Below, one piece after another: positions 8,312 through 40,100 of a stretch of DNA of 64,000 bases. Source of the stretch: Amphiscolops sp. MND2022. Lineage: Eukaryota. Location: assembly GCA_964187785.1 (NCBI GenBank), contig OZ076409.1:2108001-2172000 (forward strand), written 5' to 3'. The notes under the pieces were generated by a model. That model searched no databases. It was not told where the DNA came from and saw only the letters and a list, made by a program, of their open reading frames with translations. Numbering within the stretch: position 1 is the first letter of the stretch; each line of letters starts with the position of its first letter. The translations under genes and the position numbers were made by a program.

Positions 8312-9125
8312 ATGGCCGTGGCAACAAAGATACAACTATCATACCTAGAAGATACCGGACTCGACGGGAAGAAAATATTTACACCAAAAGAATGGACCGA
8401 GAGATTTCGACACTACATAAAAAGAATCCACAATATAGATATCAAACCGATATTAACCGATGATACGGTACCTACCGGTGACCCATGGGACACAAAAGAA
8501 CCGAAAATCAGACAAGATTTCATCTGGGGCCCCGGACCGTCGGCAATTGAAATCATCACGAAAGGAGAATTTAACACGGACCCTGACACAATCAAAACCG
8601 ACAAGTTAATTCAACTATTCCGGGAATACTACATGCCCAAAAGAAACACATACCACAGCCGTGGAGATTTCTTCTGGGCCAAGCAAGAAGAAAATGAAAC
8701 ACCCGAGGAACACTGGAAAAAGCTGATAACACTAGAAAAAACATGCGATTTCAAAAACATCAAACAAGAAGACCTACTCATATCGAAATTTATCACAAGC
8801 ATAACAGACAAAAAACTTCGGGAAAAACTGATCCGTGAAAAAACCCTCAACCTGGAAACCACCATAGAACTCATCAAACAAGACAGCTATGACCGCCGAC
8901 ATAAACAATCAACCATGCCACCCGCACTGGCGAAAGACAAAAAAAAAAACAAGAACCGATTCAAACAATCCAAACAAAACAACCCCGAGAACAACCAAAA
9001 CAAAAGAAAAACAACTGTGGATTCTGCGGACAACAAAATTGGACACCCCAACACAATTGCCCGGCTAAAACGGTAAAATGCAATAACTGTCAGAAAACAG
9101 GACACTTCGCCGGGGTATGCCGCAC
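8312..9125 (+). pseudogene. gag: Gag with two CCHC-type zinc knuckles (frameshift near the A-run at ~8940)
   Basis: ORF 8312-9076; shifted frame gives CGFCGQQNWTPQHNC and CNNCQKTGHFAGVC. Confidence 0.85.
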
Positions 9126-9165
9126 CAAACCAAACAAAACAAAAAAAATCAACTACCTGGAAGAC

Positions 9166-12100
9166 ATGACCTCCGAGGAAGACAACGAAAACAGCGAATC
9201 CGAAGAAATACTCCAAATTACACGAATCAACAAAATAACACCGGACAATAACGACCACTACGGTGTTGAAATAAAAATAAATCGGAAAAACCAAAAGTTC
9301 ATCATCGACACCGGTTCTCCGGTATCCATCATGTCCAAAAACCCCACACTGTACAACCCAGAGAATATCCAACCACTAAAAGAGAGATACCAAGATGAAA
9401 ACAAAAACGAAATCACAGTTCTGGGGAAAGTATGGGTAGACAACGAATACAACGGCGAACACACCAAATTACCACTCCTAATTACAAAGAGAACCGATAT
9501 CACACCCCTATTGGGAGTAAATTGGTTAAAACAACTGCCAATCACCATCAACAAAAACTCATTGGACAACAACACCGACCAAGTAGAAACAACAAAGACA
9601 CACACGAAATTCAAGAAACTATTCGAAACAAACCACACTATCAAGAATGCGGAGGTGAAAATACAGATAAAACCGGGGTGTTACCCAATACAACAAAAAG
9701 CACGACCAATACCGTACCATCTACAAGACGACGTAAAAAATGAATTAGACCGATTAATGAAATCCGGACATTTCAATGATTAGAAACAATCGAAGAAGAC
9801 TGTTTCGTATCCCCCGTTGTAATTACGGTAAAAAAAAGGACAAAGCGGTCAAAATTGCTCTTGATGCACGGAAACTCAACGACAGTTGCATAAAGAAAAG
9901 ACCGCACATGCCAAATATGAACGAACTACTAAACCAAATCTCTTCCGAACTATCAAAAAACGAGCTAGACCCAATCTGGATATCAGTCATAGAGTTGGAC
10001 TATGCTTACGGAAATATTAAACTATCACCGGAAACAAGCAAACATTGTAATTTTGCCATTACGGGAGAGAAAGTCAACGGATACTACCGATTTCTAAAGG
10101 GTTTTTACGGACCAGCCGACATACTCACTATTTTCCAGGAGAAAATAGACCGAACCCTCGGCCACCAAATTACAGTGTGGCTGGACGATATAATAATTGT
10201 GACACGCGGAACAAAGGAACAACACACACAAAAATTAGAATCAGTTCTAACAAAACTGGAAAACGACGGCTATAAGGCCAGTAAAAAGAAGTCAAAATTC
10301 TACCAAAAAGAATCGGTATGACTGGGACATACCATATCACAAGACGGAATCAGACCGAACAAAGAAAAAACGGATGCAATCAACAAACTGAACCCACCGA
10401 CAAACACAAAAACCCTAAAATTATTTTTTGGGAGCAATACAAATGTTTGCGAAATCCATACCGAATCTATCCGAAAAGACGGACAATATGAGACAATTGC
10501 TGAAAAAAGGAGTAAAATGGGAGTGGACAGAAGAACGAAACGCAGACTTCAACAACCTGAAAAAAGAATTGACAACACAACCATGCCTAGCACATTACAA
10601 CGGCAACAAAGAAAATATTGTCACAACCGACGCATGTGAAACCGGATTAGGCAAAGCGCTATTGCAACGTCAAAACAACGGCGAACTGAAAGCAATCGTA
10701 TATGCTAGCCGCTACCTTAACGACGCAGAGAAAAAATACTCCGTCGGTGAATTAGAACTACTAGCCGTAGTCTGGGGCCTTGAACGGTTTCAATTTCACC
10801 TATACGGAAAACAGGTTCATTTATTCTCCGACCACCAGGCTTTGGAACTACTGTTAAAGAGAAAAAAGACCAACAAACAATACAGTGCCCGACTAACACG
10901 GTGGTTAGACAGACTAAAATACACCGCCGGAAAGGAAATCCAATTCACTGATTTCATTAGCTGTAACCCAACGGAAACTGCCGAACCGGAAGAAAACTAC
11001 GAAAAAGAATTTGTCTTCAACGCCTTCGCGCAACTAGCTACGGTAAACGGCAGAATTGGACGGATTTTCGACAAATCAGAAAACAGCAACACGGCAAACA
11101 TGCATGATACGCGCACGCGGACTGGTACGCGCTACAGCAAAACAAACACAAACCATTCCAATTTGACCGCTAATCAGAATAACAACACCATTCACGACAA
11201 TCGCAAAACTCACATTGAACAACAACAACCGTCAAATTCCAGACCGATTTCCTTGAAACGATAAACTCAAATACCACTGGGGAGCCGATGATGAAATGAT
11301 GAAGATAATCAACAGAAGAGACATTTCACCGGAGACACAAGAACTAGTAGAGAGAGGAATCGAACTAACACGACCGGGCCACATGCGACACCATTGGCGC
11401 AAGAAACTCGAGAGAGAAATACTCCTCCCAAGACGACCGGACGATGTGGACAGAAAAGAAATCAAACGCATCGACATCCGCCTAAGAAGGAAAGAAGAAA
11501 ACCGAGTCACACACATCGGGGGCGGCTACTTCAAAAACTTTGGAGACGAAATCCCACAAGCATCCGGCACATCATCGAAAATCAACATGGAAACCATAAA
11601 TACACTCAAGCCTGCACCAGACACCGAATCCACGGTTTCCTCATCACCAGAAGAACCGGTAATAACGGAAGAACCAGGGTCTTACCCAGCAATCCCCTTT
11701 CAAGATTACCGTGAAGTCCCGATTGAAGAGATAGTTGTACATTATGTACGTATCAACAAGGTGATCGAGACAAAAGCCCCCAGAAACCGACAACAGGAAG
11801 GTAACATCAGAGCCGCAGAACTCGATTTTATGTTTGACCTGGAAAAACTAATCAAGGAAACGGCAGCAGACCCAGACCTAATCGATGTTCAGTGTTGCAT
11901 CGAGGACAATAATACCCACGCCATCCCAGACGACTACAAACAAGTAGCAAAGAAGCTGACCCACCGCTGGGGAAAAACAATGGTGGACGACCGAATTTTT
12001 TTTCCCAAGAGTCTACGTTACGAAGCACTCAACGCATTACACTTCGGCCATCCAGGAATGAATAAAATGTGCAACGATGCAGTTATTTTCTGGTGGCCAA

Positions 12101-12704
12101 ACATTAGAGCAGACATCAAGAAAAAAACCAAAACCTGCTCCGCATGCCTGAATGCCGGTAAGATATTAAAAACCCAACTACCTAGTACCGAAAAATCAAA
12201 ACTTGAACCGCCCAAACACCCAGGCGAAGAAATCCAAATAGATTTTACGGGAAATTTGAACAGCAAACATTTCGACTCCTCCCCTTTTATCTTAGTAGCC
12301 GTAGATAAAAATAGCCGTTGGCTGGTAGCGAAAATTTGTAAAAACACCAACCACGATACAGTAATATCATTCCAACGGAAAACATAAACGTATACGGAGT
12401 ACCGAAGACTATTAAATCGGACAACGGCAGCGCTTTCATCTCGAAAGAGTATGAAAGCTTTCGCAAAGAATATAATATAATCCCTAAATACGGGACGCCA
12501 AACTTGCATACTGGCACGGGATTGGTTGAAAGAACCATCCAATCATTGAAGAACCTAACAGAAACAAACTTAGAAGAGACGCAGAATTTACGCGAGAGCT
12601 TAAATAAAGCTCTATATGTCCTCCGTTTCGCCACACACTCTGAAATAAAAAAAAACCCGTTGGAACTACACTTCGGGCGAGAACCCGGAACAAAACTAAC
12701 CTGA
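9166..12704 (+). pseudogene. pol: Pol (protease, RT, RNase H, integrase), disrupted by stops and frameshifts
   Basis: IIDTGSPVS; LDARKLN and WLDDII; TTDACETGLG and ELELLAVVWGLERF; HFGHPG...CSAC, QIDFTG, SDNGSAF, GLVERT. Confidence 0.92.
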
Positions 12705-13733
12705 AAAATGCTATTTCAGTTAATTCCAAGGACCTATCAGTCTACATCACCCGCAATTCGGCCGGCGAGATTACCGACCACCTGGTGATGTCGAAGAAGA
12801 AGACAAGCGACCCGAAATACCGGAGGGGGATGACTTTCACCCAAAAACAGAAACCGTCAAATACGGTAATTAAAGAAAAAATACTAACTACCCGTTTACT
12901 TTTTTCGAAAAAACACATACAAAATGCTCACTTGGAAGCAAATTCAAACACAAACCAATAATTGCGGTCTCGGGGACCAAACATACGGTAACCACGGACA
13001 AGAACAAAATCCCACATAGGAAGCTAATATCTAACCCGATACCCTTTCAGGCTACAACAACCCCGACAAAAAGAATCAACACCAGACTGACAACAACGGC
13101 CGAAAAACCAACATGCTCAAAGACGGTGGAAAACGCCTGCCTATACCGTAGAAAAGAAGCACCGAAACCGGAGAACACAGAGAGCAGCGCAGACTGGCTG
13201 AAGAGGAAAGACCAACCACGCAATGAAAGAGGCCAGTTCACAAGTCCCGACAAGTCGGTGGGAAAATCGATGGACCTGGATTTGAGCATGGTATCCGACG
13301 ACGAATTCCAATGCAATAATTCTAGCGAAGGAAAACCCGTCCTTGCCAATATAGACGATGAACTGCAATTGCTACCCATGGAAACTAACCTAACCCCAGA
13401 AACAGGAATAAAAACGAATCCATTATCAAATGAACCACAACAAACGGTGAGAAAGTCGAAAAAAATACCCAACGCAAGACAAACCGAAAAATTAGGCGGT
13501 ATCCCATATTCCACAAATAACAATAAAAGAAAAATAATTAATAGTTATATGTTACAGGAAAACCAAACCAGCCAACCGAGTCAACAGCAAATTGAAAAGA
13601 GAAGCAACCGTAAAATACGGACGAGCAACCGTGAAATACGGAAAACAGTAGAGCACAAAAACTTCAACCGATTAATTCGGAACCGCCATCAATTACTACC
13701 ACCGGAAACCGAGTCCACCCGGAGGAGGGGGAA

Positions 13734-13940
13734 TGTGGAATGTAGAGGTCACAGACTGAACTACTTTAGACAGAGAGTTGTTTAAACAAATTTGATAACA
13801 AAACTCTAATTTCTGTCACATTTATGTTACTATATTACATTACCTAGATCTCATTACATTTGGATATATTGATACAAGATAGTTGAAAGAAATCTCTTTG
13901 CCACCAACATTGTTTTATAGTAAACCAAGAGATGTTAACA
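13734..13940 (+). repeat. 3' LTR
   Basis: Direct repeat of 8026-8231 preceded by a polypurine tract. Confidence 0.95.
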
Positions 13941-22230: not shown

Positions 22231-25200
22231 CTGAAAGACACACAACAACACCAGTTAATATATCACATGAAACCCCCCCCCCCCCCCTCAAAAATGCAGC
22301 GAAGGCGAGGAGGCAGTTTTTGTTTTTCAGTTCCAACTTTCAGACGAAATGTCAAACGTGAGTAGTTAAGATTTCGGCCGGCCTTTCAACGGGGGGGGTC
22401 CTCGGTTTTCACGGGGTGGGTCCTTGCTCTGAAATTTTAGGACCTATCCCTAAAAGGAAGGGGTCCTTCCAAATTGGTGTTCGGAATTGATTCGGCTTTT
22501 GACTACGAAAGTAAATTATTGGTCGGATTCTTTTTGTATTCGTTTTTGGAATCGGATTTTTGCGAAAGTACATGTAAAAGCGTAGACATTCTTGTTTATT
22601 CTTTGAATGTCTGAAATTTGGAAAGTACTAACCTTGAAATTTTGTTGTAATTGAATTGTAAAGCTGGATTGACTAATACTGCTAAAACTTTCTTGTAAAT
22701 AAAGGCAGTGGTATTTCCAACTTTCTTATCTGTATGTACGCTTTATATGCGTTTCTCCAAATGTAGTGGTGGCGGTGTTCTTATTTCTACCTGGAAATTA
22801 TCACTTGAAATAGTTGTTTTCCACGAAAATATTTCGAAAATATGTGAAATTATAAAGTTCATGTAGGAAAAGCATAGACATTCTTACTATTTGCTTGAAT
22901 GTCTTAAATGTTTGCAAGAACTAACCTTGACATTTTGGTGTAAGTCGAATCTGAGCGGTGGTGGAATAACTAACACTTTCAAGTTCGAACAAGCTGTACA
23001 AAACTTTCCAAACATGGTATCAACTATTGAAAGGTATTATTCCTTATTTGCAACGGTGGTTAGCTTGGAGGAATGTTAATATTACAATCAATGTCAGCAA
23101 GTGTTGTTTGGTAGTTGGAAAGAGCTCTACTTGACTGAAATACTGGCTGTAAAATTTTCTTCAATTCCTTCCAAATTTAGCAAAGGTCTAATTTTGATGT
23201 TTCACCAAAACGGTGTTACTTCTTTTCTTCGCCTTAATTGCAACTGGTATTTCTCATTGTGAAACACTTGTTAAAAGGAAGCATTTGCGAACATTCACCA
23301 GTTTATGGGTAAATACGATTTTACTTTACGATATTGGTATTACTAATTGTCATTTTTCAAGCAAAGAATTCTATAAAAATGGTACTAAATTTTGTCATCA
23401 AAGTCCGTAGCTGAAATCAATGAATCATACTTCAAATATGTTGAAAACTGGCAGTTTCTAAGGTAAGTGTGATTTCTTTTGAAGTTATATCAACAATGAA
23501 AAAAAGGTTAGATCATTTTTCAAACCAAAACCAAATAAATACAAAACCTGCATTATCAACAAAATTGTATCAAGTCATTAGTTTTTGTTGAACAACTGCA
23601 TAGTATACTTGATCAACCCATATTCGCTCTGCATTTTTGTTGTTAGATCGAAGCATAGGTCCCGTATTGCGTTTTGATATCGATCAACGGCATCTCCGTC
23701 AACATAATACTGTAACGGAGAGACTATGCTCGGAGAATTGAACCGTGGTATGACAAAAATCCATTTGTCCTTGATAGTTGGTAGACGGAGTGAAAATTCA
23801 GTTTGTTCCGACAAAACTACCTTCCAAAGACAGACATTGCATTTAACCATTTCTTGAAAATATTTTATGTAGAAGTCCGGGGACCCACATAAGAAAACTA
23901 TATAAAACCAGAAACAAATGGTAACCAGTTTAATGTTTTTATGAAAGGAACTAGGAAAATTGCTAATGTTTCATTCCGGTTGTATTTTTTACTGAAACCG
24001 TTGTAAATAATCATAGTGGGAAAATTTCAAGCTTGTTAACCTCAATCCTTGCTCAACGAGTGTTGTTTCGATCTGATTTTTTCCTGCTCCAAGAGTTGTT
24101 GGTTTTACATTTATAGCTTCCATTGCTCCTTGCACAATAGTCAATTGATCATTTTTCATATGAGAACCAAACATTTTGGTGTTATAGTCATTGAATTTGC
24201 TCTTTTGTGATTTTTTTTTGGTTCTAATTCCAAAGGTTAAGTGATTTGAATGAAGAAATGAAAGAACCGAGTGAATTGTTTTTTTTAGTAAAGTTTCTTT
24301 GAATCTCTTCTTTGTCAAAATTCTCCTTGAATGAATATCAATGTTTCGCTCACGCCCTGGGGAAAAGCTTACCTTCAAACTCTGGATATACTGAATTACT
24401 TGTATATTGTCTTTTATGGTAGTCCAGCCGCCAAGTTTTCCTGGGAAAATTTACACACCTTTATTCAGCTAGCCTCTTTCAATTGTAGTTACCTGATTAA
24501 TCATTTCAACCCTCGATTATTTAGGGTCTGAGTCATTTTGAGTTTTGTTCAATCAATCCTCCTTTAAAGAAGGGAAATGCTATTTTCCTTTGAAAAAAAT
24601 GAAAATTTTAGGAGACCTCCGTTTTCAAAATTCATTTTTCCAAAATCGTCTTGCGCATCTACACACCAATTTTGAGCTCGATCGGACCAGCCGTTTTCGA
24701 GAAAAAATGACCTTTTTTGCTAAAAATCGACCAATTTGAAAAATGTGAATCGGATCAATTATCTTGACATTGGAGGTTGCCAGAGTCCAACGGACGGTAC
24801 CAATCGATTCGGCGCACTCTTTACTGCAAAAAGGTGTTATTTTTAAGGTTTCATCTTTTTTATTTCTTGAAAAATGATCCATTTTTTCATGAAAAAGTGT
24901 CAAAAAGTTGTTTTAAAAATTGTCCATTTTCTCGTAAACTACGCGACTTTTGTTATTCACTCTTATAGTCAAGACTTGTGAAATTTTCCAAAGTTGACTC
25001 TTTGAGAATGTTAATTTCACACCAAAACGTTTCTACTTTACATTGTTTTTCCTCTCTTTGAGGGGAGGGCCTTGGTAATTTTCTTTGAAAAAATGAATAT
25101 TTTATGGACCCTCCCTTTTCAAAATTCATTTTTCCAAAATCGTCTCGCGCATCTACACACCAATTTTGAGCTCGATCGGACCAGCCGTTTTCGAGAAAAA

Positions 25201-28089
25201 TGACCTTTTTTGCTAAAAATCGACCATTTTGAAAAATGTAAATCGGATCAATTATCTTGACATTGGAGGTTGCCAGAGTCCAACGGACGGTACCAATCGA
25301 TTCGGCGCACTCTTTACTGCAAAAAGGTGTTATTTTTAAGATTCCATCTTTTTTATTTCTTGAAAAATGATCCATTTTTTCATGAAAAAGTGACAAAAAG
25401 TTGTTTTAAAAATTGTCCATTTTCTCGTAAACTACGCGACTTTTGTTATTCACTCCTATAGTCAAGACATGTGTAATTTTCCAAAGTTGACTCTTTGAGA
25501 ATGTTAATTTCACACCAAAACGTTTCTACTTTACATTGTTTTTCCTCTCTTTGAGGGGAGGGCCTTGGCAATTTTCTTTGAAAAAATGAATATTTTATGG
25601 ACCCTCCCTTTTCAAAATTCATTTTTCCAAAATCGTCTCGCGCATCTACACACCAATTTTGAGCTCGATCGGACCAGCCGTTTTCGAGAAAAATGACCTT
25701 TTTTGCTAAAAATCGACCATTTTGAAAAATGTTAATCGGGTCATATATCTCGACATTGGAGGTTGCCAGAGTCCAACGGACGGTACCAATCGATTCGGCG
25801 CACTCTTTACTGCAAAAAGGTGTTATTTTTAAGATTCCATCTTTTTTATTTCTTGAAAAATGATCCATTTTTTCATGAAAAAGTGACAAAAAGTTGTTTT
25901 AAAAATTGTCCATTTTCTCGTAAACTACGCGACTTTTGTTATTCACTCCTATAGTCAAGACTTGTGTAATTTTCCAAAGTTGACTCTTTGAGAATGTTAA
26001 TTTCACACCAAAACGTTTCTACTTTACATTGTTTTCCCTCTCTTTGAGGGGAGGGCCTTGGCAATTTTCTTTGAAAAAATGAATATTTTATGGACCCTCC
26101 CTTTTCAAAATTCATTTTTCCAAAATCGTCTCGCGCATCTACACACCAATTTTGAGCTCGATCGGACCAGCCGTTTTCGAGAAAAATGACCTTTTTTGCT
26201 AAAAATCGACCATTTTGAAAAATGTTAATCGGGTCAATTATCTCGACATTGGAGGTTGTCAGAGTCCAACGGACGGTACCAATCGATTCGGCGCGCTCTT
26301 TACTGTAAAAAGGTGTTATTTTTAAGGTTCCATCTTTTTTATTTCTTGAAAAATGATCCATTTTTTCATGAAAAAGTAACAAAAAGTTGTTTTAAAAATT
26401 GTCCATTTTCTCGTAAACTACGCAACTTTTGTTATTCACTCCTATAGTCAAGACTTGTGAAATTTTCCAAAGTTGACTCTTTGAGAATGTTAATTTCACA
26501 CCAAAACGTTTCTACTTTACATTGTTTTTCCTCTCTTTGAGGGGAGGGCCTTGGCAATTTTCTTTGAAAAAATGAATATTTTATGGACCCTCCCTTTTCA
26601 AAATTCATTTTTCCAAAATCGTCTCGCGCATCTACACACCAATTTTGAGCTCGATCGGACCAGCCGTTTTCGAGAAAAATGACCTTTTTTGCTAAAAATC
26701 GACCATTTTGAAAAATGTAAATCGGATCAATTATCTTGACATTGGAGGTTGCCAGAGTCCAACGGACGGTACCAATCGATTCGGCGCACTCTTTACTGCA
26801 AAAAGGTGTTATTTTTAAGGTTTCATCTTTTTTATTTCTTGAAAAATGATCCATTTTTTCATGAAAAAGTGTCAAAAAGTTGTTTGAAAAATTGTCCATT
26901 TTCTCGTAAACTACGCGACTTTTGTTATTCACTCCTATAGTCAAGACTTGTTTAATTTTCCAAAGTTGACTCTTTGAGAATGTTAAGTTCACACCAAAAC
27001 GTTTCTACTTTACATTGTTTTTCCTCTCTTTGAGGGGAGGGCCTTGGCAATTTTCTTTGAAAAAATGAATATTTTATGGACCCCCCCTTTTCAAAATTCA
27101 TTTTTCCAAAATCGTCTCGCGCATCTACACACCAATTTTGAGCTCGATCGGACCAGCCGTTTTCGAGAAAAATGACCTTTTTTGCTAAAAATCGACCATT
27201 TTGAAAAATGTTAATCGGGTCAATTATCTCGACATTGGAGGTTGCCAGAGTCCAACGGACGGTACCAATCGATTCGGCGCACTCTTTACTGCAAAAAGGT
27301 GTTATTTTTAAGGTTTCATCATTTTTATTTCTTGAAAAATGATCCATTTTTTCATGAAAAAGTGGCAAAAAGTTGTTTTAAAAATTGTCCATTTTCTCGT
27401 AAACTACGCGACTTTTGTTATTCACTCCTATAGTCAAGACTTGTGAAATTTTCCAAAGTTGACTCTTTGAGAATGTTAATTTCACACCAAAACGTTTCTA
27501 CTTTACATTGTTTTTCCTCTCTTTGAGGGGAGGGCCTTGGCAATTTTCTTTGAAAAAATGAATATTTTATGGACCCCCCCCCCTTTTCAAAATTAATTTT
27601 TCCAAAATCGTCTCGCGCATCTACACAGCAATTTTGAGCTCGATCGGACCAGCCGTTTTTGAGAAAAATGACCTTTTTTGCTAAAAATCGACCATTTTGA
27701 AAAATGTAAATCGGGTCAATTATCTCGACATTGGAGGTTGCCAGAGTCCAACGGACGGTACCAATGGATTCGGCGCACTCTTTACTGCAAAAAGGTGTTA
27801 TTTTTAAGGTTCCATCATTTTACTTTCTTGAAGTATGATCAATTTTTTCATGAAAATGTGATAAAAAGTGGGTTTTAAAAAGTGTCCTTTTCTCATAAAC
27901 TACGTGCTTTTTGATATTTACTTTTATGGTCACGACTTATAAAAGTTTTAAGAGATATCAATAGGAGCGAAAGTAGAGGGAGAGAGAGAGGAGCTAAGAT
28001 AGAATGTGGAGCGAAGATAACGAAAGAGAAAGATAGGAGCGAAAATAGAAGAAGATAGTGAGAGGAAGAGGAGCGAAAAGAGAGAGACA

Positions 28090-28137
<48 letters not shown>

Positions 28138-31100
28138 AGGGACAAAGGAGCGTTGATAGATAGAGGAGTGAAGATAGAGAAAGAAGGAGATTTCTAAACC
28201 TGGATAAAGAGACTTTCTCAATTTGATTACGATGGTTGAAATCTTCGAAGGTTCGAAGCAACTGCAAGTTTAAAAGATAAATGTTCAGAAAGGCCTTCAC
28301 TCTTATTGTTGGAAAAATAGTCATGACTCTGCTCTGACTCTTCATTATTTGTATTGGTTCTAATAAACACCAATTCAATTTTAGTCTCCAATTGAATCTA
28401 GTAGTATGAAAAAAAGTTAACACGAACCACTTTTTGCTGTTTTATTTTACCTCGAAAATGACTGGGAAAGTCAAACCATACGGTCGGTTTGAGTTCAAAT
28501 TTTTCTTCGTTGTCACTCTGCTTCATTTCATCGTCCGAAACAACAAATTTCTTTTCATCCAGAAATAAAGTTGAATTATCCAAAGTAATTGGTACAATGG
28601 TTTTCGGTGAAGAATGAGGTATCTTGTAATGCCCGAATGCTAACGTTTCATTTCCCTCTGCAATGTAACGGGGGGATTTACATTGAGTTACATTAACTTA
28701 AGTAGTTAAGATTTCAGCCGGCCTTTCAACGGGGGGGGTCCTCGGTTTTCACGGGGTGGGTCCTTGCTCTGAAATTTTAGGACCTATCCCTAAAAGGAAG
28801 GGGTCCTTCCAAATTGGTGTTCGGAATTGATTCGGCTTTTGACTGCGAAAGTAAATTATTGGTCGGATTCTTTTTGTATTCGTTTTTTGGATTCTTTTTG
28901 TATTCGTTTTTTGGAATCGGATTTTTGCGAAAGTACATGTAAAAGCGTAGACACTCTTGTTTATTCTTTGAATGCCTGAAAGTTTGGAAAGTACTAACCT
29001 TGAAATTTTGTTGTAATTGAATTGTAAAGCTGGATTGACTAATACTGGTACAACTTTCTTGTAAATAAAGGGAGTGGTATTTCCAACTTTCTTATCTGTA
29101 TGAACACTTAATATTATTAGGAATAGTAATATGCGTTCCTCCAAATGTAGTGGTAGCGGTGTTCTTATTTCTACCTGTAAATTATCTTAACTTCCCAACA
29201 AATTCGTTTTGAATCTACATGTTGTTGCTAACCCCTGACCTACCCAAGTTAAATTTAATATAACTGTAAACCACCATTCTTCGTTTCAACTCTTGTTTGA
29301 AAACAAAATGAATTTCACAAATTCAAGCTTTATTATGCTGTTAACGTTATACAAAGTAAAATTAGTGAATGATATTACTGTAATTCATTATCAATATAAA
29401 ATTTGACTTTTTTCTGAGGAGGGGGACCACGGGTGGGAACTTCCACTGCTTCACAGTCTAAAAATACATTTGGCTGGGTATTGGGTAAGTCTTCTTCGAA
29501 ATCAGACAACTCTGTTAGGTCAATAACGTCTGGTAATTCACTTTCTTCTATTGCATCTTGATTAAGTCCAGGGTCGGGTGGGGAAAATAAAGCTGGTTGG
29601 TTGGAGTTTGACTGTATCGGTGACTGAATAAAGTCCTCCTCCTCCTCGTCCCCCCAATCGCAATCCGCCCCAATTTCTCTGAATATTACGTCGTCTCGCA
29701 AAGAATAATGTCCAAAAGGTAAGGTATCAACGCCGTTTGGCATTATATATCTTTTATCGTCAAAACAGCTGAGAGAAATTTTTGTTGTCTGCAAGGTAAA
29801 CAGATTATGTCTTTCACTATTTATTGTGTAGTTTAATGTTCTAAGTAGTGTTTCTTTTTCGAGAATTCGATAAAATACAGAGTGTTGTAGGTTCTTTTGT
29901 GCATGTTTGGTGGTTCCTTTGGCAGAAATTTTTTGTTGATCACCCATCGCGATTGAATACAATTTTGATTTTAGTGCAACAATGCTGTGTATGATTTTAC
30001 CACCAACTTCGTCTTTGAATTTCAAAGTTTCCAACTTTTGATGTTTGGAATATAGTTGATTATCTTCTTTATAGTTTGAAAAGTCAAACTCTGGGTGCAC
30101 TTGTTCGTTTTCTTTGAGGTCAGCGTATATGTCTTCCGATTCGATTTCATAAATTAGGGAATCTGTATCGGAGTAGAGCACTAATGTTCGGAAGTTTGGT
30201 TTCATGTACATGTAATGAAACCAGTACATATGTCGTTTAGATAAATCCAAGATGGTAGCGCCGACTATCGTTGGCTTGTCCCAGTAAATTTTGCGCTGTG
30301 CAAACGTTATGGCAGCCAACTGGTTGTTGAAAATCTTGAATGTTTTCATCCACATTTTGCTTGTTTGCTTTTGCAACTCATCTTGCGTGCGGACAATCTC
30401 AATGGACAATCGTTTTCTTTTACTTTCCATGGTTTTACGTGAAGCAGCGTCTAACTGGGATATAGAAAGTCTTCATCGTTGTGACCTACCAATGCTACCT
30501 ATACAAATCAAACGCATCCTGTGTAGAGACGACTGCGCAATGGTTCCATTAACGGAGAATCAAATGGGTTTCTTCAGGGAGGTTGATTCACTTGAAGATT
30601 TTTGGGGAGTTGAACATGATCCTGCATCTCCATCACCACAAGTCTCCCCAGAAGTTCTGGTCTGCACAACAGAAGACGAAGAGACGAAAGATGGTGATGA
30701 TCTAACAGTGAGTCCTCAAATTGTGACGCCTGATAGCACTCGAACTGCAGCGTTGGAGCCACCACCAGTGAAGAAGGCAAAACAGCAGGAAAAGAAACTT
30801 TTGAAGCGATTCTAACCAATCTAACAAATACTGTCAAAAGCTTACTAACCAATCTAACCAAATACTGTCAAAAGCTTACGTCGAAATTTGAAGACATTTT
30901 ATGCAGAGTTCTGTTTAAAGTAGCCTAGGAAATCGTTTTTGAGAGTTGAGTTTGCGAAAAATTTACAAGACTTTTCCACAGGAGTAAATTTCAAAAGTCG
31001 CGTAGTTTACGAGATTTTGAACATTTTTTAAACTCAATTTTTGATCATTTTCGGTCAAAAAAACAAACATTTCTCAACATTGAAAAAAGTTTCGGAGCCA

Positions 31101-34100
31101 AAATTTGGCACAAAACTAGAAAAGAGGACGCTGAAAACGCTGGTGAAAACCGCAGGGCGCTAGCTTTACCGAGTGTTGAGATTTTGACCAAAAAATGCAA
31201 TTTTTAAAAATGCCATTTTTTGACAAAAAATGTCAATTTTCTCAAAAACTGTTGGTCGGATCGGTCTGAAAATTTGCAGGTAGGTGCGCAAGACGATTTC
31301 GAAAAAATGAAATTTGAAAAAGGGGGGTGCATGGAAATTTCGATTTTTTTGAAAAATGGAAAAATTCACTTTGCACTCCTCTATTATAGGCGAAATTTGA
31401 TTGTTCAAGCAGTCAAAGTTGTTTAGAAACCAAATTTGAGAGTTGAGTTTGCGAAAAATTTACAAGACTTTTCCACAGGAGTAAATTTCAAAAGTCGCGT
31501 AGTTTACGAGATTTTGAACATTTTTTAAACTCAATTTTTGATCATTTTTGGTCAAAAAAACAAACATTTCTCAACATTGAAAAAAGTTTCGGAGCCAAAA
31601 TTTGGCACACAACTAGAAAAGAGGACGCTGAAAACGCTGGTGAAAACCGCAGAGCGCTAGCTTTACCGAGTGTTGAGATTTTGACCAAAAAATGCATTTT
31701 TTCAAAATGCCATTTTTTGACAAAAAATGTCAATTTTCTCAAAAACTGTTGGTCGGATCGGTCTGAAAATTTGCAGGTAGGTGCGCAAGACGATTTTGAA
31801 AAAATGAAATTCGAAAAAGGGGGTGCATGGAAAATTTGACCTTCTTGCAAAAATGAAAAAAATTCCCGTTCCTCCCCCCTATAATGCCCAGCAGTCAATA
31901 TACGGAGACAAAAAAAAAGTTAGTCGAATATGCATACAATTTTCCTGGAAAAAACATGGCGCCTGGAATACCGTAAAAGGTGGTCGAATCAAAATTTAAA
32001 GAAATCCAGTCTCTCGGGATACCATAATTGGTTATCGCCTTGTTAAAAGTCGAACATGCAAACAATTTTCTTGGTAAAAATGGCACCTGGGATACCATAA
32101 ATAGTGATCGAATCAGAATTCAAAGAATTCAGTCGCTCGGGATACCATAAATGGTAATCACCTCCTTAATTGATCGGAGCGAAGTGCAAAAACATTTTCT
32201 CAATCTCAACATTGAGGAACACTCGACTTTCCAAAATGGGTGTGGAGTGTGATCTTTGTCTAAAAACATATAGTTCTTTGAGAAATTTGCGTCGGCACAA
32301 GCAAAATATACACAACACACAACCCAAAGTTCAACCTTTTGCTTGCTCCGATTGTGATTTTCAAAACACTTCTCTGGTTACGATGAAACAACATTTTTTA
32401 CAAAAACATGGACATATAATAGTAAATCATTGCCTTTATTGCAACATAGTTTACGGTGAAGCTATGAAATACTCGAATCATCTTGAGCATGATCATGGTT
32501 TACCAACAATATTTACACCCCGCGAAAATGACAACATCGAAAGAATGACCGGTTATCAACAGGTGGAAAAAGCCTTTTGGGGATCATTGGAAACGTATCA
32601 ACTCAAGCGAAGGATCACATCAATTGATTTATTCGAACTACTTTGTAAGGAAAAAAATCAAATACAAAACCTTATTAGAGAAAAATGTCGCAATGGACCC
32701 AAGAAATTTCAATTAACAACTGAATTGAAGTTAGTTAAACCGAAAGTTGATGATGACTCTCAAGAGACAATCACAATTTATACCAACACAAAGTTGCAAC
32801 CAGTTTACTTTTATGGGATCACAGACAACGACTATTATCAATTGATAGAACAACTTACTTCAGCTTTATTTACTTTTGCATCCCAAGGAAGTGGGTGGAT
32901 TTTGTCCGAAATTAAAAACCTTTTTGTTAAATTTACATCCTATTCTCCCATTCGGGGTAGCTCTTACATCGCACTTCCAAATAAACTTCAAGGTTGTAGG
33001 TCACTACTCAATATTCGGAACATTGAAGATGAGAATTGCTTTATATATTGTTATACGGCCGCTTACCACTTGCACACAGACATACCATTGGTTGAAACAA
33101 GTTCGTGGCGCTGCAAAACAAACCCAGGCACTTATAATCCTACATATAATCCTCTGGCAAAAAAGCATGCAGGCAACTTTCGGATGCCAATGCCGTTTCA
33201 TGAACTTGAACGATTCGAAAAACTCAACAAAGTCCAAGTCAATGTGTTTATATTGGAGAAGAAAGATTTGTTACCTCTCAGAGTCTCTAAATTCCCCAGT
33301 GACTTTATCATGGATCTTTTATTGTTGTCAGAAGGAGGTTCTCATCACTACGTACTGATTACTGATTTGAAACATTTTGTAAACTTTTTGAAAAATAAAC
33401 AAAGTAGATCGAGGGATGAAATTTGCAGAAACTGTTTTCATATTTGTAATTCAATCGGGAGTTTCGAAAGACACAAGCTCAACTGTTACGAAAACGAGGC
33501 CGCGGCGATCATATTACCCGATGAGCATAAAAACATACATCAATTCAAAAATACAAGAGCAGTTTGGTTTGTTCCACTGGTTATTTACCTTGATACTGAA
33601 GCGCTCCTAGTACCTTTATCTACATGCGCTCCTTCACCCAGTATTAGCAGTCAAGTAAAGTTGGAAAAACATGTGCCTTGTGGTTATGCTTTTGTAATTG
33701 TAGAACATGGAAATGATAAAGTTTTGTCTTACAGAATCATGCGAGGTCCCGATTGCTTGGACGATTTAATAAAAGAATTGGAAAAATTGGCAACAGACAT
33801 TTATCATAGAAAACAAAGTCACCGAATTTACAAGGGCAAGCCTTCAACGCACAAAGACACTGTAAATGATTGTTGGATTTGTAAAAAACCTTTCACGAAT
33901 GACGAGCAGAAAGTGTTGGACCATTGTCATTACAGTGGTACATTCCTAGGGTGGGCACATTCAGAATGTAATCTACAAAGGAAGTCAATAAACTTCACCC
34001 CCGTGATAGCACACAACATGGCTGGATATGATATACACCACATTTGTTCGGCAATCAACAATTGTAATCCAAAGAACAAGTTTTCAGTTATTCCTACAAC

Positions 34101-37100
34101 TGACGAAAAGTACATTTCCTTCACATTTTCTGTGTGGGTAAACTCATATACTGACAAGAATGGAATGACAAAAAATGTATATGAAGACATGCGATTCTTG
34201 GACTCTTTCAAGTTCATGCCCCAGTCACTAGATAAACTGGCGGGTTTCTTACCACAGGATAAATTCATTTATCTGGAGAGTCAATTCAATACATACAAAA
34301 CACCGTCGCAAATTGACTTGCTGAAAAGGAAAGGTGTTTATCCCTATTCATACATGGACAGTTTCGATAAATTTGCCGAGGAAAAGCTTCCCCCAAAAGA
34401 GTTTTGGAAAAACACTCTCGCAGGGGGTGAAGTCACAATTAGTGATCAGGATTTACAACATGCTAGTCTTGTATACCAAGAGTTTGATTGCAAAACACTA
34501 GGTCACTATCACGATTTATATTTACACACCGATGTTTTGATTTTGGCCTCGGTATTCGAAGAGTTTAGAAAAGTGTGTTATGCAACTTACGGACTGGATT
34601 GTGCTCATTTTTATACTGCGTCAAATTTGTCCGGTGAAGCCTTCCTTAAAGTGTGCAACGCAGATATCGAATTACTAACTAATCGAGAACACCTTGAAGT
34701 TGCTGAAAACCTAATCCGCGGAGGAATTTCTTCCGTGTTTGCAAAACGCAAATTTGAAGCAAATAACAAATATCTACCAACATACAACTCTTCACAGAAG
34801 CAAACATTTGGGCTGTTTATTGATGCAAACAACTTGTATGGAGGAATCATGGAAAAGTTCCCCTTGCCTTTAAAAAACTTTGTATTGAAAAGAGAAGGCG
34901 AAGTTGACCTACAAGAAATACTAAATACTCCAAATGACTCACCAGTTGGATATGTATTGGAAGTTGACTTGCATTATCCTGATCATTTGCACGATTTACA
35001 CACTGATTTCCCTTTGGCTCCTACGAAGGAAACAATTAATTTTTTTTGGCTCGGTGAATATCAAACACGATTGCTGGAAATGAGTGGAACAAAGACCTTT
35101 TCAACAAAAAACAAAAAGTTGATCCAAACACTCTACGACAAAACCAATTATACTATACATTACATGACATTGAAATTATACTGTGAACTGGGGTTACAAG
35201 TTACCAAAGTACATAGAGTGTTGCAATTTGAACAGTCAAAATGGCTCCAGCCATATATACAGTTAAACACAATGAAACGAAAAGCGTCTACAAACAAGTT
35301 TGAAGAAAACTTTTTCAAACTAATGAGCAACTCTGCTTTTGGTAAAACCATGGAAAGTAAAAGAAAACGATTGTCCATTGAGATTGTCCGCACGCAAGAT
35401 GAGTTGCAAAAGCAAACAAGCAAAATGTGGATGAAAACATTCAAGATTTTCAACAACCAGTTGGCTGCCATAACGTTTGCACAGCGCAAAATTTACTGGG
35501 ACAAGCCAACGATAGTCGGCGCTACCATCTTGGATTTATCTAAACGACATATGTACTGGTTTCATTACATGTACATGAAACCAAACTTCCGAACATTAGT
35601 GCTCTACTCCGATACAGATTCCCTAATTTATGAAATCGAATCGGAAGACATATACGCTGACCTCAAAGAAAACGAACAAGTGCACCCAGAGTTTGACTTT
35701 TCAAACTATAAAGAAGATAATCAACTATATTCCAAACATCAAAAGTTGGAAACTTTGAAATTCAAAGACGAAGTTGGTGGTAAAATCATACACAGCATTG
35801 TTGCACTAAAATCAAAATTGTATTCAATCGCGATGGGTGATCAACAAAAAATTTCTGCCAAAGGAACCACCAAACATGCACAAAAGAACCTACAACACTC
35901 TGTATTTTATCGAATTCTCGAAAAAGAAACACTACTTAGAACATTAAACTACACAATAAATAGTGAAAGACATAATCTGTTTACCTTGCAGACAACAAAA
36001 ATTTCTCTCAGCTGTTTTGACGATAAAAGATATATAATGCCAAACGGCGTTGATACCTTACCTTTTGGACATTATTCTTTGCGAGACGACGTAATATTCA
36101 GAGAAATTGGGGCGGATTGCGATTGGGGGGACGAGGAGGAGGAGGACTTTATTCAGTCACCGATACAGTCAAACTCCAACCAACCAGCTTTATTTTCCCC
36201 ACCCGACCCTGGACTTGATCAAGATGCAATAGAAGAAAGTGAATTACCAGACGTTATTGACCTAACAGAGTTGTCTGATTTCGAAGAAGACTTACCCAAT
36301 ACCCAGCCAAATGTATTTTTAGACTGTGAAGCAGTGGAAGTTCCCACCCGTGGTCCCCCTCCTCAGAAAAAAGTCAAATTTTATATTGATAATGAATTAC
36401 AGTAATATCATTCACTAATTTTACTTTGTATAACGTTAACAGCATAATAAAGCTTGAATTTGTGAAATTCATTTTGTTTTCAAACAAGAGTTGAAACGAA
36501 GAATGGTGGTTTACAGTTATATTAAATTTAACTTGGGTAGGTCAGGGGTTAGCAACAACATGTAGATTCAAAACGAATTTGTTGGGAAGTTAAGATAATT
36601 TACAGGTAGAAATAAGAACACCGCTACCACTACATTTGGAGGAACGCATATTACTATTCCTAATAATATTAAGTGTTCATACAGATAAGAAAGTTGGAAA
36701 TACCACTCCCTTTATTTACAAGAAAGTTGTACCAGTATTAGTCAATCCAGCTTTACAATTCAATTACAACAAAATTTCAAGGTTAGTACTTTCCAAACTT
36801 TCAGGCATTCAAAGAATAAACAAGAGTGTCTACGCTTTTACATGTACTTTCGCAAAAATCCGATTCCAAAAACGAATACAAAAAGAATCCAAAAAACGAA
36901 TACAAAAAGAATCCGACCAATAATTTACTTTCGCAGTCAAAAGCCGAATCAATTCCGAACACCAATTTGGAAGGACCCCTTCCTTTTAGGGATAGGTCCT
37001 AAAATTTCAGAGCAAGGACCCACCCCGTGAAAACCGAGGACCCCCCCCCCGTTGAAAGGCCGGCTGAAATCTTTACTACTAACGTGAAAGACCGTTACAG

Positions 37101-40100
37101 CAGCAATTTTATACGTTATTTCGCTTAAAGCACTTAAACCCAGGCCTGTTGAATTAATAGTTAAATAAATATATCACAACTGAAAATCAACGAAACATAC
37201 AAGTTATGTTTAAAATTTGGTGTATTTCTGAAAAACACATTTTCTACGTATTGTTCAATCAATACACATTTCTCAAGATGTGCATGGTTTGTTTCATCAA
37301 TTTTTTCACTACAAAACTTTCACGAGGTCCCGAGAAAAACTACTAGGTGTACCAAAAAACGGAACGCATAAAAATACTTCAGCTCTCAAAGTTTCAAATA
37401 TTTGTCAACAAATGTTTCAGAACAACTCTCAATTTTGCAATTCAGCTTGTCAGTCATCCAGCAAATAAGACAAGCTATGGATCAGAAACAAAGCCCCTAT
37501 CGCATTTTCCTAGACCTCAAAAAAGCTTTCGATACATTAGACCATGAGATTTTGCTGTCCAAATTAGAGTCTTTCGGTTTCCGCGGCAGAGTGCTAACGT
37601 TGTTGAAATCCTATCTAAACAATAGGAAACCATTTCTCTGAATGGATAGCTACAGATCATCTTGCCAGCCAGTGAAATGCGGTGTACCTCAAGGGTCTGT
37701 ACTCGGACCTTTATCGTTTCTGTTGTATATCAACGATCTTCCACGACATGCCAAGGCTTGTATTACTTTTGCCGACAATACGAAAATCTTTTACACTGAG
37801 AGCACCAGTTTGCAATAGTTGGCTGACATACTTGACAAGGTTGATGAATGGATACGAAGTAATAAACGGAAATGTAACCTCGATAAATCAACAGCTGTCT
37901 GCTTCGGCAAAAATACAGTGAACCATCAGATGGAAGATTTCAGATTAAACATCAAACATAAAGTATTTGGGTGTCATCATTGATGAGACACTTTCTTTCA
38001 AAGATCATATTTCGAAAGTGAAAATCAAAACTGCTATTTTGCGATTACAGTCTGGTGCACACGCCAACTGCTAATCAGCGATCAACTAATAATATACTAA
38101 ACGCTTCATGTCAAACCAATTACCCAATATGGGGTCCTCCTAATTGGTTGTACTCCCTATTCGGCACTGCAACCAATCATGGTTCTACAGAGGAGGCTCA
38201 TCAGAAGTATTTTCAAACTTCCGAAGTTTGCATCGGTGAAAGACTTATGATTGAGTACGAATTATCTTCGGTATATGAGCTCCATATTCATGAGCTTTTG
38301 AAGTTTTACTAGATTGCACACGAGAAGATCACTTGGTGGTAGCAGTAAACGATGTAATTAGGCAAATACAGGAACGAAGGTACAATTTCGGTCATGCGAA
38401 TCAGAAGGCTACTGTGCCTGTATCGCGCAATAAAAGTTTTGAACACTGCCTCTCGAAACGAATCCCGGCTTTGTTCAATGTGCTGCTCTCCTGGAGGGCA
38501 CTGCCTGATCTACAGTACATCTCCAAGCTCGATGCTGAAAAGCGCAATGCTCTATGTCATGACTTCTACAAGTGCTCCATAGGAAACGAGCAATTGATCC
38601 GTGTAGTGTTTGGTCTGGACTCATTCTGAAAGATATGATTTTTCAGTTTACCTGATGAAAAAATCCCGCGTTAGAGCTCGGAGGAGTCTACATTTATGCT
38701 CACCGTGAGCAGTGAAGACTCCTGGGCCAATAAAGTCGGGCATCAGGTGTGCAGAAGCGCTAAAACTATATCAACAAGGGTGTGAGATACGAGTTTTCAG
38801 TCATTTTATGCTTTCTTTCAGTACCCTAAACTTGTGGCTAACCGTTGACAACTTCAATTTGTGGAGCTAGTATTGGCAAAGCTATCAAGCCTACAGTGCT
38901 ATTCCCAAAAGTCAACAAAATATATTTTCAAGTTTTTTTTGGAAAGCTGGTTCTAGTTCTCTGTATTGAAATGTTCTATTTCTCTGAACTCTCTTTTTTG
39001 TGATTTGATTTTTGACTGCGAGAATGATGAGCTAGCAACCTGCTCTATGGAAAGCCTCCTACAAGCGGCTTTCTATTCTATTTGTATTCGTAATATGTAT
39101 GACCAAATGAATTAAATTATCATTATTATTATACTTTAACACCTTTTTTCCGAAGCCAAGAAACTTTCACACATCAAAAATGTGAACGTAATGACTGGTA
39201 AAAAAATCTAGCCTTTTCTGAAAGTTCGGATTATTCTTTGATAAATATTTGACTACGTAATGAGAGGATGATTGACAGAGAAAGTGAAAGATTATCAGTG
39301 CCTTGTTTACAAATATTATGATTTTGAAGAGTGAATATTTTGTGCATTTCGTTTTTTTTTTGTTTTACCTAGTAATCTTTGTAGGGTCTAAAACTTGTAA
39401 CAAAAAGCACCGACAAAAAGTAGGTTTGTTTCTATTTGAGGTCAAATTGTGCCGATGAGCTGATGAAAACTGACCTCATTGGACAGGGCACTGAGCTGGC
39501 CCCGTAATCGGGCATTGACCTCTGCCAGTCGATCTAGTTCGTCCATCCAGGCATTCTCGTCATGCAACGCCACACAGAAGAAAGCAGTCGAAGATGATGA
39601 TGTTGATGATGATGGTGATAACGAAGTTGAATTGTCCTCCACATCTTGAAAAGAAAAAACAAGTCGGCGTCATATCTAAGGCTCAAAAAAACTCGAAAAC
39701 GAAAAACACTTTTTCTACAACTGGACACAACAAAAGCTTTCAAAAAACTAAAAATTGAGTTAAAAATTTCCGAATTTTTTTCGGAATTTTTTTGAAGTTT
39801 CCGGTAAGTCGCATAGTGCCGAAAAATGTAAAAGCGGGGACGCTTTGGGATTTTTTGAACATCCATTCTGTTGCAAAATATCAAAAATTGATGGGAGGAA
39901 CAATAAATTCGGAAAAAATCAGTCTCACAGTGCCGAAAAAAGGAGGAAAGTCTCATAGTGTCGAAAAAAGTGGACCCTTCTGCTTTGGAATGGCTTTTTA
40001 TCTCATGTTAGAGGCTTTGGATGCGTTGAAAATGTACTATGTACATATGGTAAAAGTTTGTAAATGTGCATTAATGCACAAAAAGTGGACGTTACGCGTT

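Follow-up and report, generated by a model that had tools for sequence, protein, structure and literature searches.

A probable copy-back-type rearrangement of a Maverick joined to an arm of a palindromic Maverick derivative in the genome of Amphiscolops sp. MND2022

The inverted repeat and its gene content

We analyzed a 64,000-nt stretch of the genome of Amphiscolops sp. MND2022 (assembly GCA_964187785.1, contig OZ076409.1, positions 2,108,001 to 2,172,000 of the forward strand; hereafter, the window), which hosts an 8.4-kb inverted-repeat segment (28701-37080) derived from a Maverick/Polinton element. An earlier sequence-only reading had interpreted this segment as a self-contained, defective mini-replicon captured as a unit. 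In the following, M denotes the multicopy 16.2-kb Maverick/Polinton family to which the segment is related, and P denotes a second, palindromic family. Both were surveyed across the assembly (1.07 Gb in 1929 contigs) by means of pattern counts and BLAST lists in which the best-scored candidates were examined. Positions are those of the window unless another contig is named.

A global alignment of 28701-30450 with 35330-37080 revealed that the left arm (28701..30438) is the reverse complement of 35342-37080. A repeat search recovered the same relation as two inverted pieces, each 100% complementary (28908-30450/35330-36872, 1543 nt; 28731-28911/36868-37048, 181 nt), plus a 46-nt terminal piece. 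The alignment contains 9 arm-to-arm differences, and 4 of them (30439-30441 and 30448) lie beyond the switch point, i.e., 30438/30439, where arm identity stops. Within 28701-30438, the arms differ by two substitutions (28707 T vs 37074 A; 29563 T vs 36217 C) and two homopolymer lengths (2 nt in a G-run and 1 nt in a T-run), so the near-perfect inverted repeat described from the sequence alone is confirmed. The outer end of both arms is AGTAGT, as had also been seen, and the inverted arm ends exactly at this element terminus with no run-on into flanking DNA. A third terminus, at 22361, had gone unreported: a 23-nt terminus pattern has three matches in the window, at 22361 (+), 28701 (+), and 37080 (-), and none in 100 shuffles.

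Folded into a panhandle, the segment would pair over a 1,738-bp stem, with the polymerase gene in a loop of 4.9 kb. Its left arm (reverse strand) comprises the last 1,738 bp of M in reverse, i.e., the right terminal inverted repeat (TIR), the 3' untranslated stretch, and the C-terminal 351 codons of the polymerase (29375-30430, reverse strand). The internal M sequence that follows (30439..32169, forward strand) hosts the 3' part of a broken 199-aa open reading frame (ORF), a 497-bp repeat present in ~1.9 copies (30929-31860), and a pair of 123-bp repeats. The right arm (35342..37080, forward strand) is the native M right end, with its TIR at ~36726-37080. The polymerase ORF (32170-36405, forward strand) has 1411 codons counted from a TTG, with the first ATG at codon 23, and it is the sole long open frame within the segment, in agreement with the earlier claim that the polymerase gene, read there as protein-primed, is the only intact one. 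None of the integrase, ATPase, protease, and capsid candidates of full-length M copies lies within 28701-37080, in line with the earlier reading on this point.

The parent family M

The full-length M copy used for comparison is 16,204 bp long, with TIRs of ~324-355 bp at ~90% identity and the termini AGTAGT...ACTACT. Window positions 30439-37080 match its right part at 99.5% identity over 6650 nt, and 28701-30450 match the M right end, reversed, at 99.2% identity. The segment is therefore the right 6.64 kb of M, to whose inner end the last 1,738 bp of M have been added in inverse orientation, and this comparison upholds its description as a Maverick derivative with copy-back-like topology and two copies of the same (right) end.

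Pfam searches of the full-length copy identified an rve integrase (3.9e-11, 43.5 bits vs a cutoff of 32.6), a Pox_A32 ATPase (2.1e-06, 27.9 bits vs 22.8), and a Peptidase_C5 protease (4.7e-05, 23.6 bits vs 21.3), and 12 of its 15 ORFs had no Pfam match. Two ORFs of 435 and 288 aa lie at the expected capsid position, and neither matched Pfam at E<=1. Perfect 6-bp target-site duplications (TSDs) flank all 10 complete elements checked (8 M and 2 elements with P termini at both ends). Collectively, the gene content, TIRs, termini, and TSDs make M a typical Maverick/Polinton according to the description in PMC6431247; more specifically, the two share the rve integrase, A32-like ATPase, adenovirus-type protease, ~350-bp TIRs, AG...CT termini, and 6-bp TSDs, and M also has a putative B-family polymerase. 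By contrast, the copy in the window has lost everything left of M position 9558 and has a second right end in inverted orientation.

M is a young and abundant family. Among the best 40 of 268 candidates, all 40 scored copies were at least 99% identical over 3.6 kb, and BLAST comparisons overall found M copies 98-100% alike. A 30-nt terminus pattern occurs 169 times in the genome, and an M right-end-specific 34-mer occurs 65 times. All seven other copies that were fetched continue left of the position equivalent to 30439 with mutually shared sequence (98.9-99.7%) that is missing in the window, which makes 30439 a breakpoint inside a larger repeat and no element end. A reading of this sharp boundary as a long interspersed nuclear element (LINE)-type, twin-priming structure was dropped, given that other copies continue leftward and Maverick genes were found.

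The reiterated AGT-AGT at the M terminus is what initiation by protein-primed jumping back would need. AAC stands at the 5' end of one strand in 5 of the 10 TSDs (AACCAC, AACTTA, AACTTT, GTGGTT, and TACGTT), and the corresponding hexamer at the present locus is AACGTG. One M copy (C2:94546410-94562613) is flanked by a 27-bp direct repeat of flank DNA instead of 6 bp. In addition, the two TIRs of one M copy share copy-specific variants, as if the ends of a copy were homogenised (comparisons with 28701-29200, 36580-37080, and 22361-22860); around position 129, for example, both ends of the C2 copy have gaaatacttc where the window arms have gaattgattc. At C10:31647932-31655415, two M right ends point the same way at a distance of 6.9 kb, and one M is probably nested in, or abuts, another.

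Target-site duplications define a 14.7-kb composite

The hexamer before 28701 is AACTTA and that after 37080 is AACGTG, i.e., the two termini of the segment lack a matching 6-bp TSD. AACGTG is also found directly before the third terminus (22355..22360 on the left, 37081..37086 on the right), and since it pairs 22361 with 37080, the integrated unit is 22361-37080 (14.7 kb), with the terminus at 28701 internal to it. We estimate the chance of such a match between two unrelated flanks at ~0.2%, given the AAC bias of the TSDs. The right flank (37081-37335, ~255 bp) had no other match in the assembly among the best 40 of 1903 candidates, and no alternative allele was found. Insertion of 28701-37080 as a unit was rejected, and the captured self-contained element of the sequence-only reading falls with it, as all 10 complete elements have a perfect TSD. 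The segment is no insertion unit; it is a rearranged M inside a larger composite.

Family P consists of palindromic, non-coding derivatives

The remainder of the composite is an arm of family P (22361..28670, forward strand). From its outer end, the arm runs through a right-end-like terminus (22361-22802) and ~1.8 kb of unique sequence into a 493-bp satellite array (24582-27938), beyond which ~0.73 kb leads to a palindrome centre. Window positions 22361-24700 match 24 other arms at 99% over ~2.3 kb (best 25 of 386 candidates, the locus itself included). Compared with M, the P terminus matches the right end over 485 nt (88%) and the left TIR over 330 nt (94%), and it follows the M right end beyond the TIR. 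Moreover, the 493-bp satellite of P is 67-69% similar to the internal 497-bp repeats of M, with the same polarity relative to the right terminus.

The copies on C11 (6936867-~6950900) and C13 (17513324-17525469) are contiguous palindromes whose arms meet at the window-equivalent of 28663|28670, leaving a loop of ~8 nt; further copies lie at C4:12242298-12257533 and C9:28801315-28816713. A P-specific 35-mer marks 49 arms in the genome, and 24 of these form 12 convergent pairs 6.5-13.8 kb apart. Three of the five pairs examined have a perfect 6-bp TSD (AACTTA on C4, AACTTT on C13, and GATGCA on C9). As for the other two, the pair at C3:~43137183-43151366 is flanked by a 22-bp repeat, with the first 16 nt of one terminus missing, and one pair has no TSD.

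P appears to be devoid of genes. No ORF in 22300-24700 reaches 110 aa, and a tblastn search of the P arm with the polymerase returned nothing better than E 4.3. A 176-aa ORF (27893-28423) was considered as a coding remnant and rejected, having no similarity to the 199-aa M ORF that is broken at the junction. One base in a 35-nt marker (23403-23437) is private to the P arm of this locus, which gave the only exact match; 37 other arms have one alternative base in common.

Of the 8 P-centre stretches that were fetched, 5 are interrupted by scaffold gaps of 200 N, and a further arm stands at a contig start (C1433); the assembler thus often fails at P palindrome centres. P comprises palindromic derivatives with two right-end-like termini that integrate with TSDs and are usually giant palindromes. 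Given their Maverick termini and 6-bp TSDs, they presumably depend on a Maverick integrase rather than on a transposase of the foldback superfamily. P does resemble the foldback transposons FB and Tetris (PMC4079207) in its long inverted arms rich in tandem repeats, tiny loop, lack of coding sequence, and link to satellites; the termini and the 6-bp TSDs set it apart. The wider proposal of helper-dependent derivatives with two same-type ends, made for the flagged segment, finds its counterpart in the P family of this genome.

Two junctions found at this locus only

The composite contains two internal junctions. The first (J1) is a 30-nt linker (28671..28700) between the P arm and the internal M terminus, ending in AACTTA, in which the start of the P return arm recurs twice in partial form. 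With up to 3 mismatches allowed, a 35-mer across its left boundary (28660-28694) matches the genome once, and none of the 23 other scored P copies passes 28670. The linker could be end-joining filler at a broken palindrome centre, or it could be a P centre altered at this locus alone and then used by an integrase as its target. The AAC bias (5 of 10 TSDs) favours the latter, an AAC by coincidence having a probability of ~1 in 64.

At the second (J2, 30438..30439), polymerase codon 1058 (reverse strand, KLMSNSAFGKT) is joined to position 9558 of full-length M, inside the 199-aa ORF, which has no Pfam match. The switch had been placed inside the polymerase and inside an unrelated ORF, and both placements agree with ours; the accompanying label, motif B, is one that we likewise presume. 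A 40-nt sequence spanning J2 has one match in the 1.07-Gb genome at up to 3 mismatches. With a longer J2-spanning probe, both sides were covered at the locus itself only among the best 40 of 152 candidates, and the other 39 scored copies all matched at 100% solely from 30439 rightward. All 65 M right-end markers were listed, and only at this locus do two lie in opposite orientation within 20 kb, facing outwards. Further copies of the 30438 junction had been anticipated for a propagating element, with a unique junction signifying a one-off event; the single match places the segment in the second class, with no sign of amplification. Three nucleotides beyond J2, a 6-nt match (AAGCAG) lies in register on both parental sequences, and with the next bases 8 of 9 positions agree.

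Public sequencing data provided a further view of the junctions. Six runs each shared 5-7% of sampled words, and the contigs of the four that were compared were mostly 90-95% alike, i.e., they come from relatives. None of these contigs bridges 30438/30439 or 28700/28701, a result that is silent on the source individual. Contigs reaching 30436-30438 continue with normal polymerase sequence, and one beginning at 30456 is preceded by normal internal sequence. Over 28867-30700, these contigs, which come from marine metagenomes and from another organism, hold Maverick relatives, 90-95% alike, in normal configuration.

These results bear on whether 28701-37080 could be a defective-interfering or minimal replicon, captured as a unit and propagating with helper functions. 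It has two intact same-type termini and an open polymerase ORF, a free molecule of this form is an intermediate in one of the routes considered below, and derivatives with two same ends are integration-competent in this genome (a TSD in 3 of 5 P pairs). We nevertheless consider such a replicon highly improbable, given that no TSD pairs 28701 with 37080 and that J2, like the arrangement of two M right ends, is unique in 1.07 Gb (one locus among 65 markers); the normal sequence on either side of J2 in relatives from four public runs (90-95% identity) points weakly in the same direction.

An assembly artefact would be another account of the unique junctions, with J1 (28670-28701) and/or J2 arising from chimeric reads or from a mis-join among similar repeats. 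Inverted junctions a few kilobases apart are the usual form of chimera made by strand-displacing polymerases. Assembler failures at P centres (5 of 8 stretches, plus the arm at a contig start), the 98-100% likeness of M copies, and the lack of source-organism read support for the assembled junctions all speak for it. Even so, the outer TSD ties a P-type left terminus and an M-type right terminus to one chromosomal site, and the window contains no N. Furthermore, the 30-nt linker is novel sequence and no butt joint of two repeats, the arms differ (2 substitutions and 2 homopolymer runs) and hence do not copy one consensus, and a simple fold-back read would give a palindrome that lacks the 4.9-kb spacer and includes the flank. 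On balance, we regard an artefact as improbable.

The two arms resemble each other more than other M right ends

We compared the arms with 21 other M right ends (20 fetched plus the reference copy) of the ~63 in the genome. The arms differ mutually by 2 substitutions and from the other right ends by 9-22. Two substitutions are common to both arms and occur in 0 of the 21 others, and both arm-to-arm substitutions are private to the right arm. The median between copies is 13 substitutions, and among 210 pairs of right ends taken from different loci, 4 are at most 2 apart. The comparison favours one source molecule for both arms. Two of the four arm differences, one at position 7 and one in the G-run, fall in the last 40 nt before the right terminus, a weak hint of a recombinant terminus, one of the two being a homopolymer.

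These data also bear on an origin of the arms in two independent M insertions, placed in opposite orientations near a P centre, with a later deletion that began 1,738 bp inside one copy and reached position 9558 of the other. M copies that are nested or lie side by side do exist (as on C10, in the same orientation and 6.9 kb apart), the AACTTA before 28701 resembles an integrase target (AAC at one 5' end in 5 of 10 TSDs), and two copies of one burst could be this alike, as the 4 close pairs from different loci indicate. Against this stand the two substitutions found in both arms and in none of the 21 others, the 2 differences set against a median of 13, and the extra step needed to bring an M right terminus against the AACGTG that is paired with a P-type left terminus. 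We judge two insertions a rather improbable origin.

A one-off rearrangement and its possible routes

The 8.4-kb segment is probably a one-off, copy-back-type rearrangement of one M genome that was joined to a P arm, as far as the assembled sequence allows it to be known. We observe its anatomy, the pairing of TSDs, two junctions that are each unique, and arms that are sisters; from these we infer the mechanism. By one strand or template switch, an M genome would have lost its left 9.5 kb and received in their place its last 1,738 bp, copied in inverted orientation, and the rearranged M would have been joined at its inner terminus (28701), via the unique 30-nt linker, to one P arm. The genomic context offers a precedent, in that palindromic two-right-end derivatives integrate with TSDs here and the P arm of this locus ends at the palindrome centre of its family.

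The switch may have occurred on a free, linear M genome undergoing protein-primed replication. The resulting two-right-end molecule would have inserted close to the middle of a P palindrome already in place, or been joined to a P half-molecule before integration, and the right arm of P would later have been lost by recombination between directly repeated terminal sequences. We hold this route tentatively, as a possibility short of probable. A somewhat unlikely course of events is that a full M inserted near a P centre and that gap repair then rearranged it on the spot: its left TIR would have primed on the homologous inverted right TIR, copied inwards, and been rejoined at position 9558. Since the arm ends exactly at the terminus, either the template ended there, as on a free genome, or TIR homology set the register, as in gap repair, and the present evidence cannot separate the two. 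The simplest path that sets an M right terminus at AACGTG would be an M-derived insertion near the P centre followed by loss of the right P arm; the right-end sequences proposed to recombine are nearly identical over their outer ~146 nt. Alternatively, M-derived and P molecules may have been joined before a normal two-ended integration.

Several points weigh against a copy-back-type rearrangement of one M genome. J1 and J2 are known from the assembled sequence, and the near-identity of the arms is not decisive, as the 4 of 210 other-locus pairs are equally close. At J2 itself, 3 nt do not pair, a poor fit to a clean microhomology-primed switch. The J1 linker, including its AACTTA end, is part of no other P copy, so a nested insertion into P presupposes a palindrome centre changed at this locus alone, and end joining leaves the AAC-type hexamer to coincidence (1 in 64). 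In addition, a switch on a free genome and gap repair in place each need three or four separate events. Since the structure is a singleton, there is no sign that the rearranged segment replicated or moved as such.

Relation to known defective genomes and possible significance

In PMC13506859, a copy-back genome is defined as one with a reverse-complement copy of one genome end, forming a panhandle with a large loop, and a snap-back genome as a symmetric palindrome; the former definition fits 28701-37080 and the latter fits family P. Accounts of these classes deal mainly with RNA viruses and with free replicating genomes, whereas here the sequences are chromosomal DNA. Unlike viral defective genomes that replicate or interfere, the copy-back form in this genome is a singleton known from its sequence.

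Adenovirus defective DNA with inverted ends was reportedly described by Daniell and Mullenbach in 1978. Abortive gap repair gives rise to internally deleted TIR transposons, and protein-primed linear plasmids give rise to hairpin or palindromic derivatives; in both, one end of the element gives way to the other end in inverted form, kept in register with the terminus. Literature searches returned no palindromic, copy-back, foldback, gap-repair, or hairpin derivatives of Mavericks/Polintons, which is no proof of absence.

The genome may thus keep both strand-switch classes of defective element as integrated fossils, i.e., a copy-back singleton and the snap-back P family, an idea that we advance with reserve. 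As an equally tentative part of it, P would have kept two right-end origins and integrase sites, lost its genes, and spread with TSDs to ~49 arms while expanding the 493-bp satellite. To our knowledge, the replication mode of Mavericks has so far been deduced from gene content alone. Protein-primed strand-displacement replication makes such by-products in adenoviruses, phi29-type systems, and linear plasmids, and a terminus-exact inverted arm together with TSD-flanked palindromes is the kind of by-product that it would be expected to leave. If true, the fossil reading would provide the first genomic evidence of how Mavericks replicate and would outline how a virus-like element can give rise to foldback-type transposons and to satellite DNA. 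Confirmation by long reads would make these structures a testable handle on Maverick replication, on the origin of non-autonomous derivatives, and possibly on that of foldback-like elements and satellites. By itself, the 8.4-kb segment is one rearrangement that reached a dead end, and the palindromic P family is the more interesting result.

The polymerase ORF and a neighbouring retrotransposon

The 1411-codon ORF departs from the typical Maverick/Polinton polymerase in that it is missed by Pfam DNA_pol_B_2 (no match in its polymerase part at E<=1), carries N-terminal C2H2 zinc fingers (CTCF-like matches), and contains an endonuclease-VII/HNH-like insert at residues ~564-602. Searches of PHROGs and PDB sequences gave no polymerase match, returning endonuclease VII and C2H2 zinc-finger matches only. 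The ORF contains DTE, DANNLYG, SNSAFGK, YSDTDS, and KSKLY, which we take to be B-family motifs. In the nearest protein-atlas clusters (score 0.98), PF03175 occurs in 38-44% of members, and in one cluster at 0.90 it occurs in 94%; clusters with the mix of PF03175, C2H2, and endonuclease VII come from several animal phyla. This association serves as a lead to the identity of the protein.

Upstream of the composite, the window hosts the degraded pol of a Ty3/gypsy-type long terminal repeat retrotransposon (8312-13785, forward strand), split over several frames. Its ORFs match retroviral aspartyl protease, RVT_1, RT_RNaseH_2, and Integrase_H2C2, and the AT skew of this stretch reaches up to 0.39.

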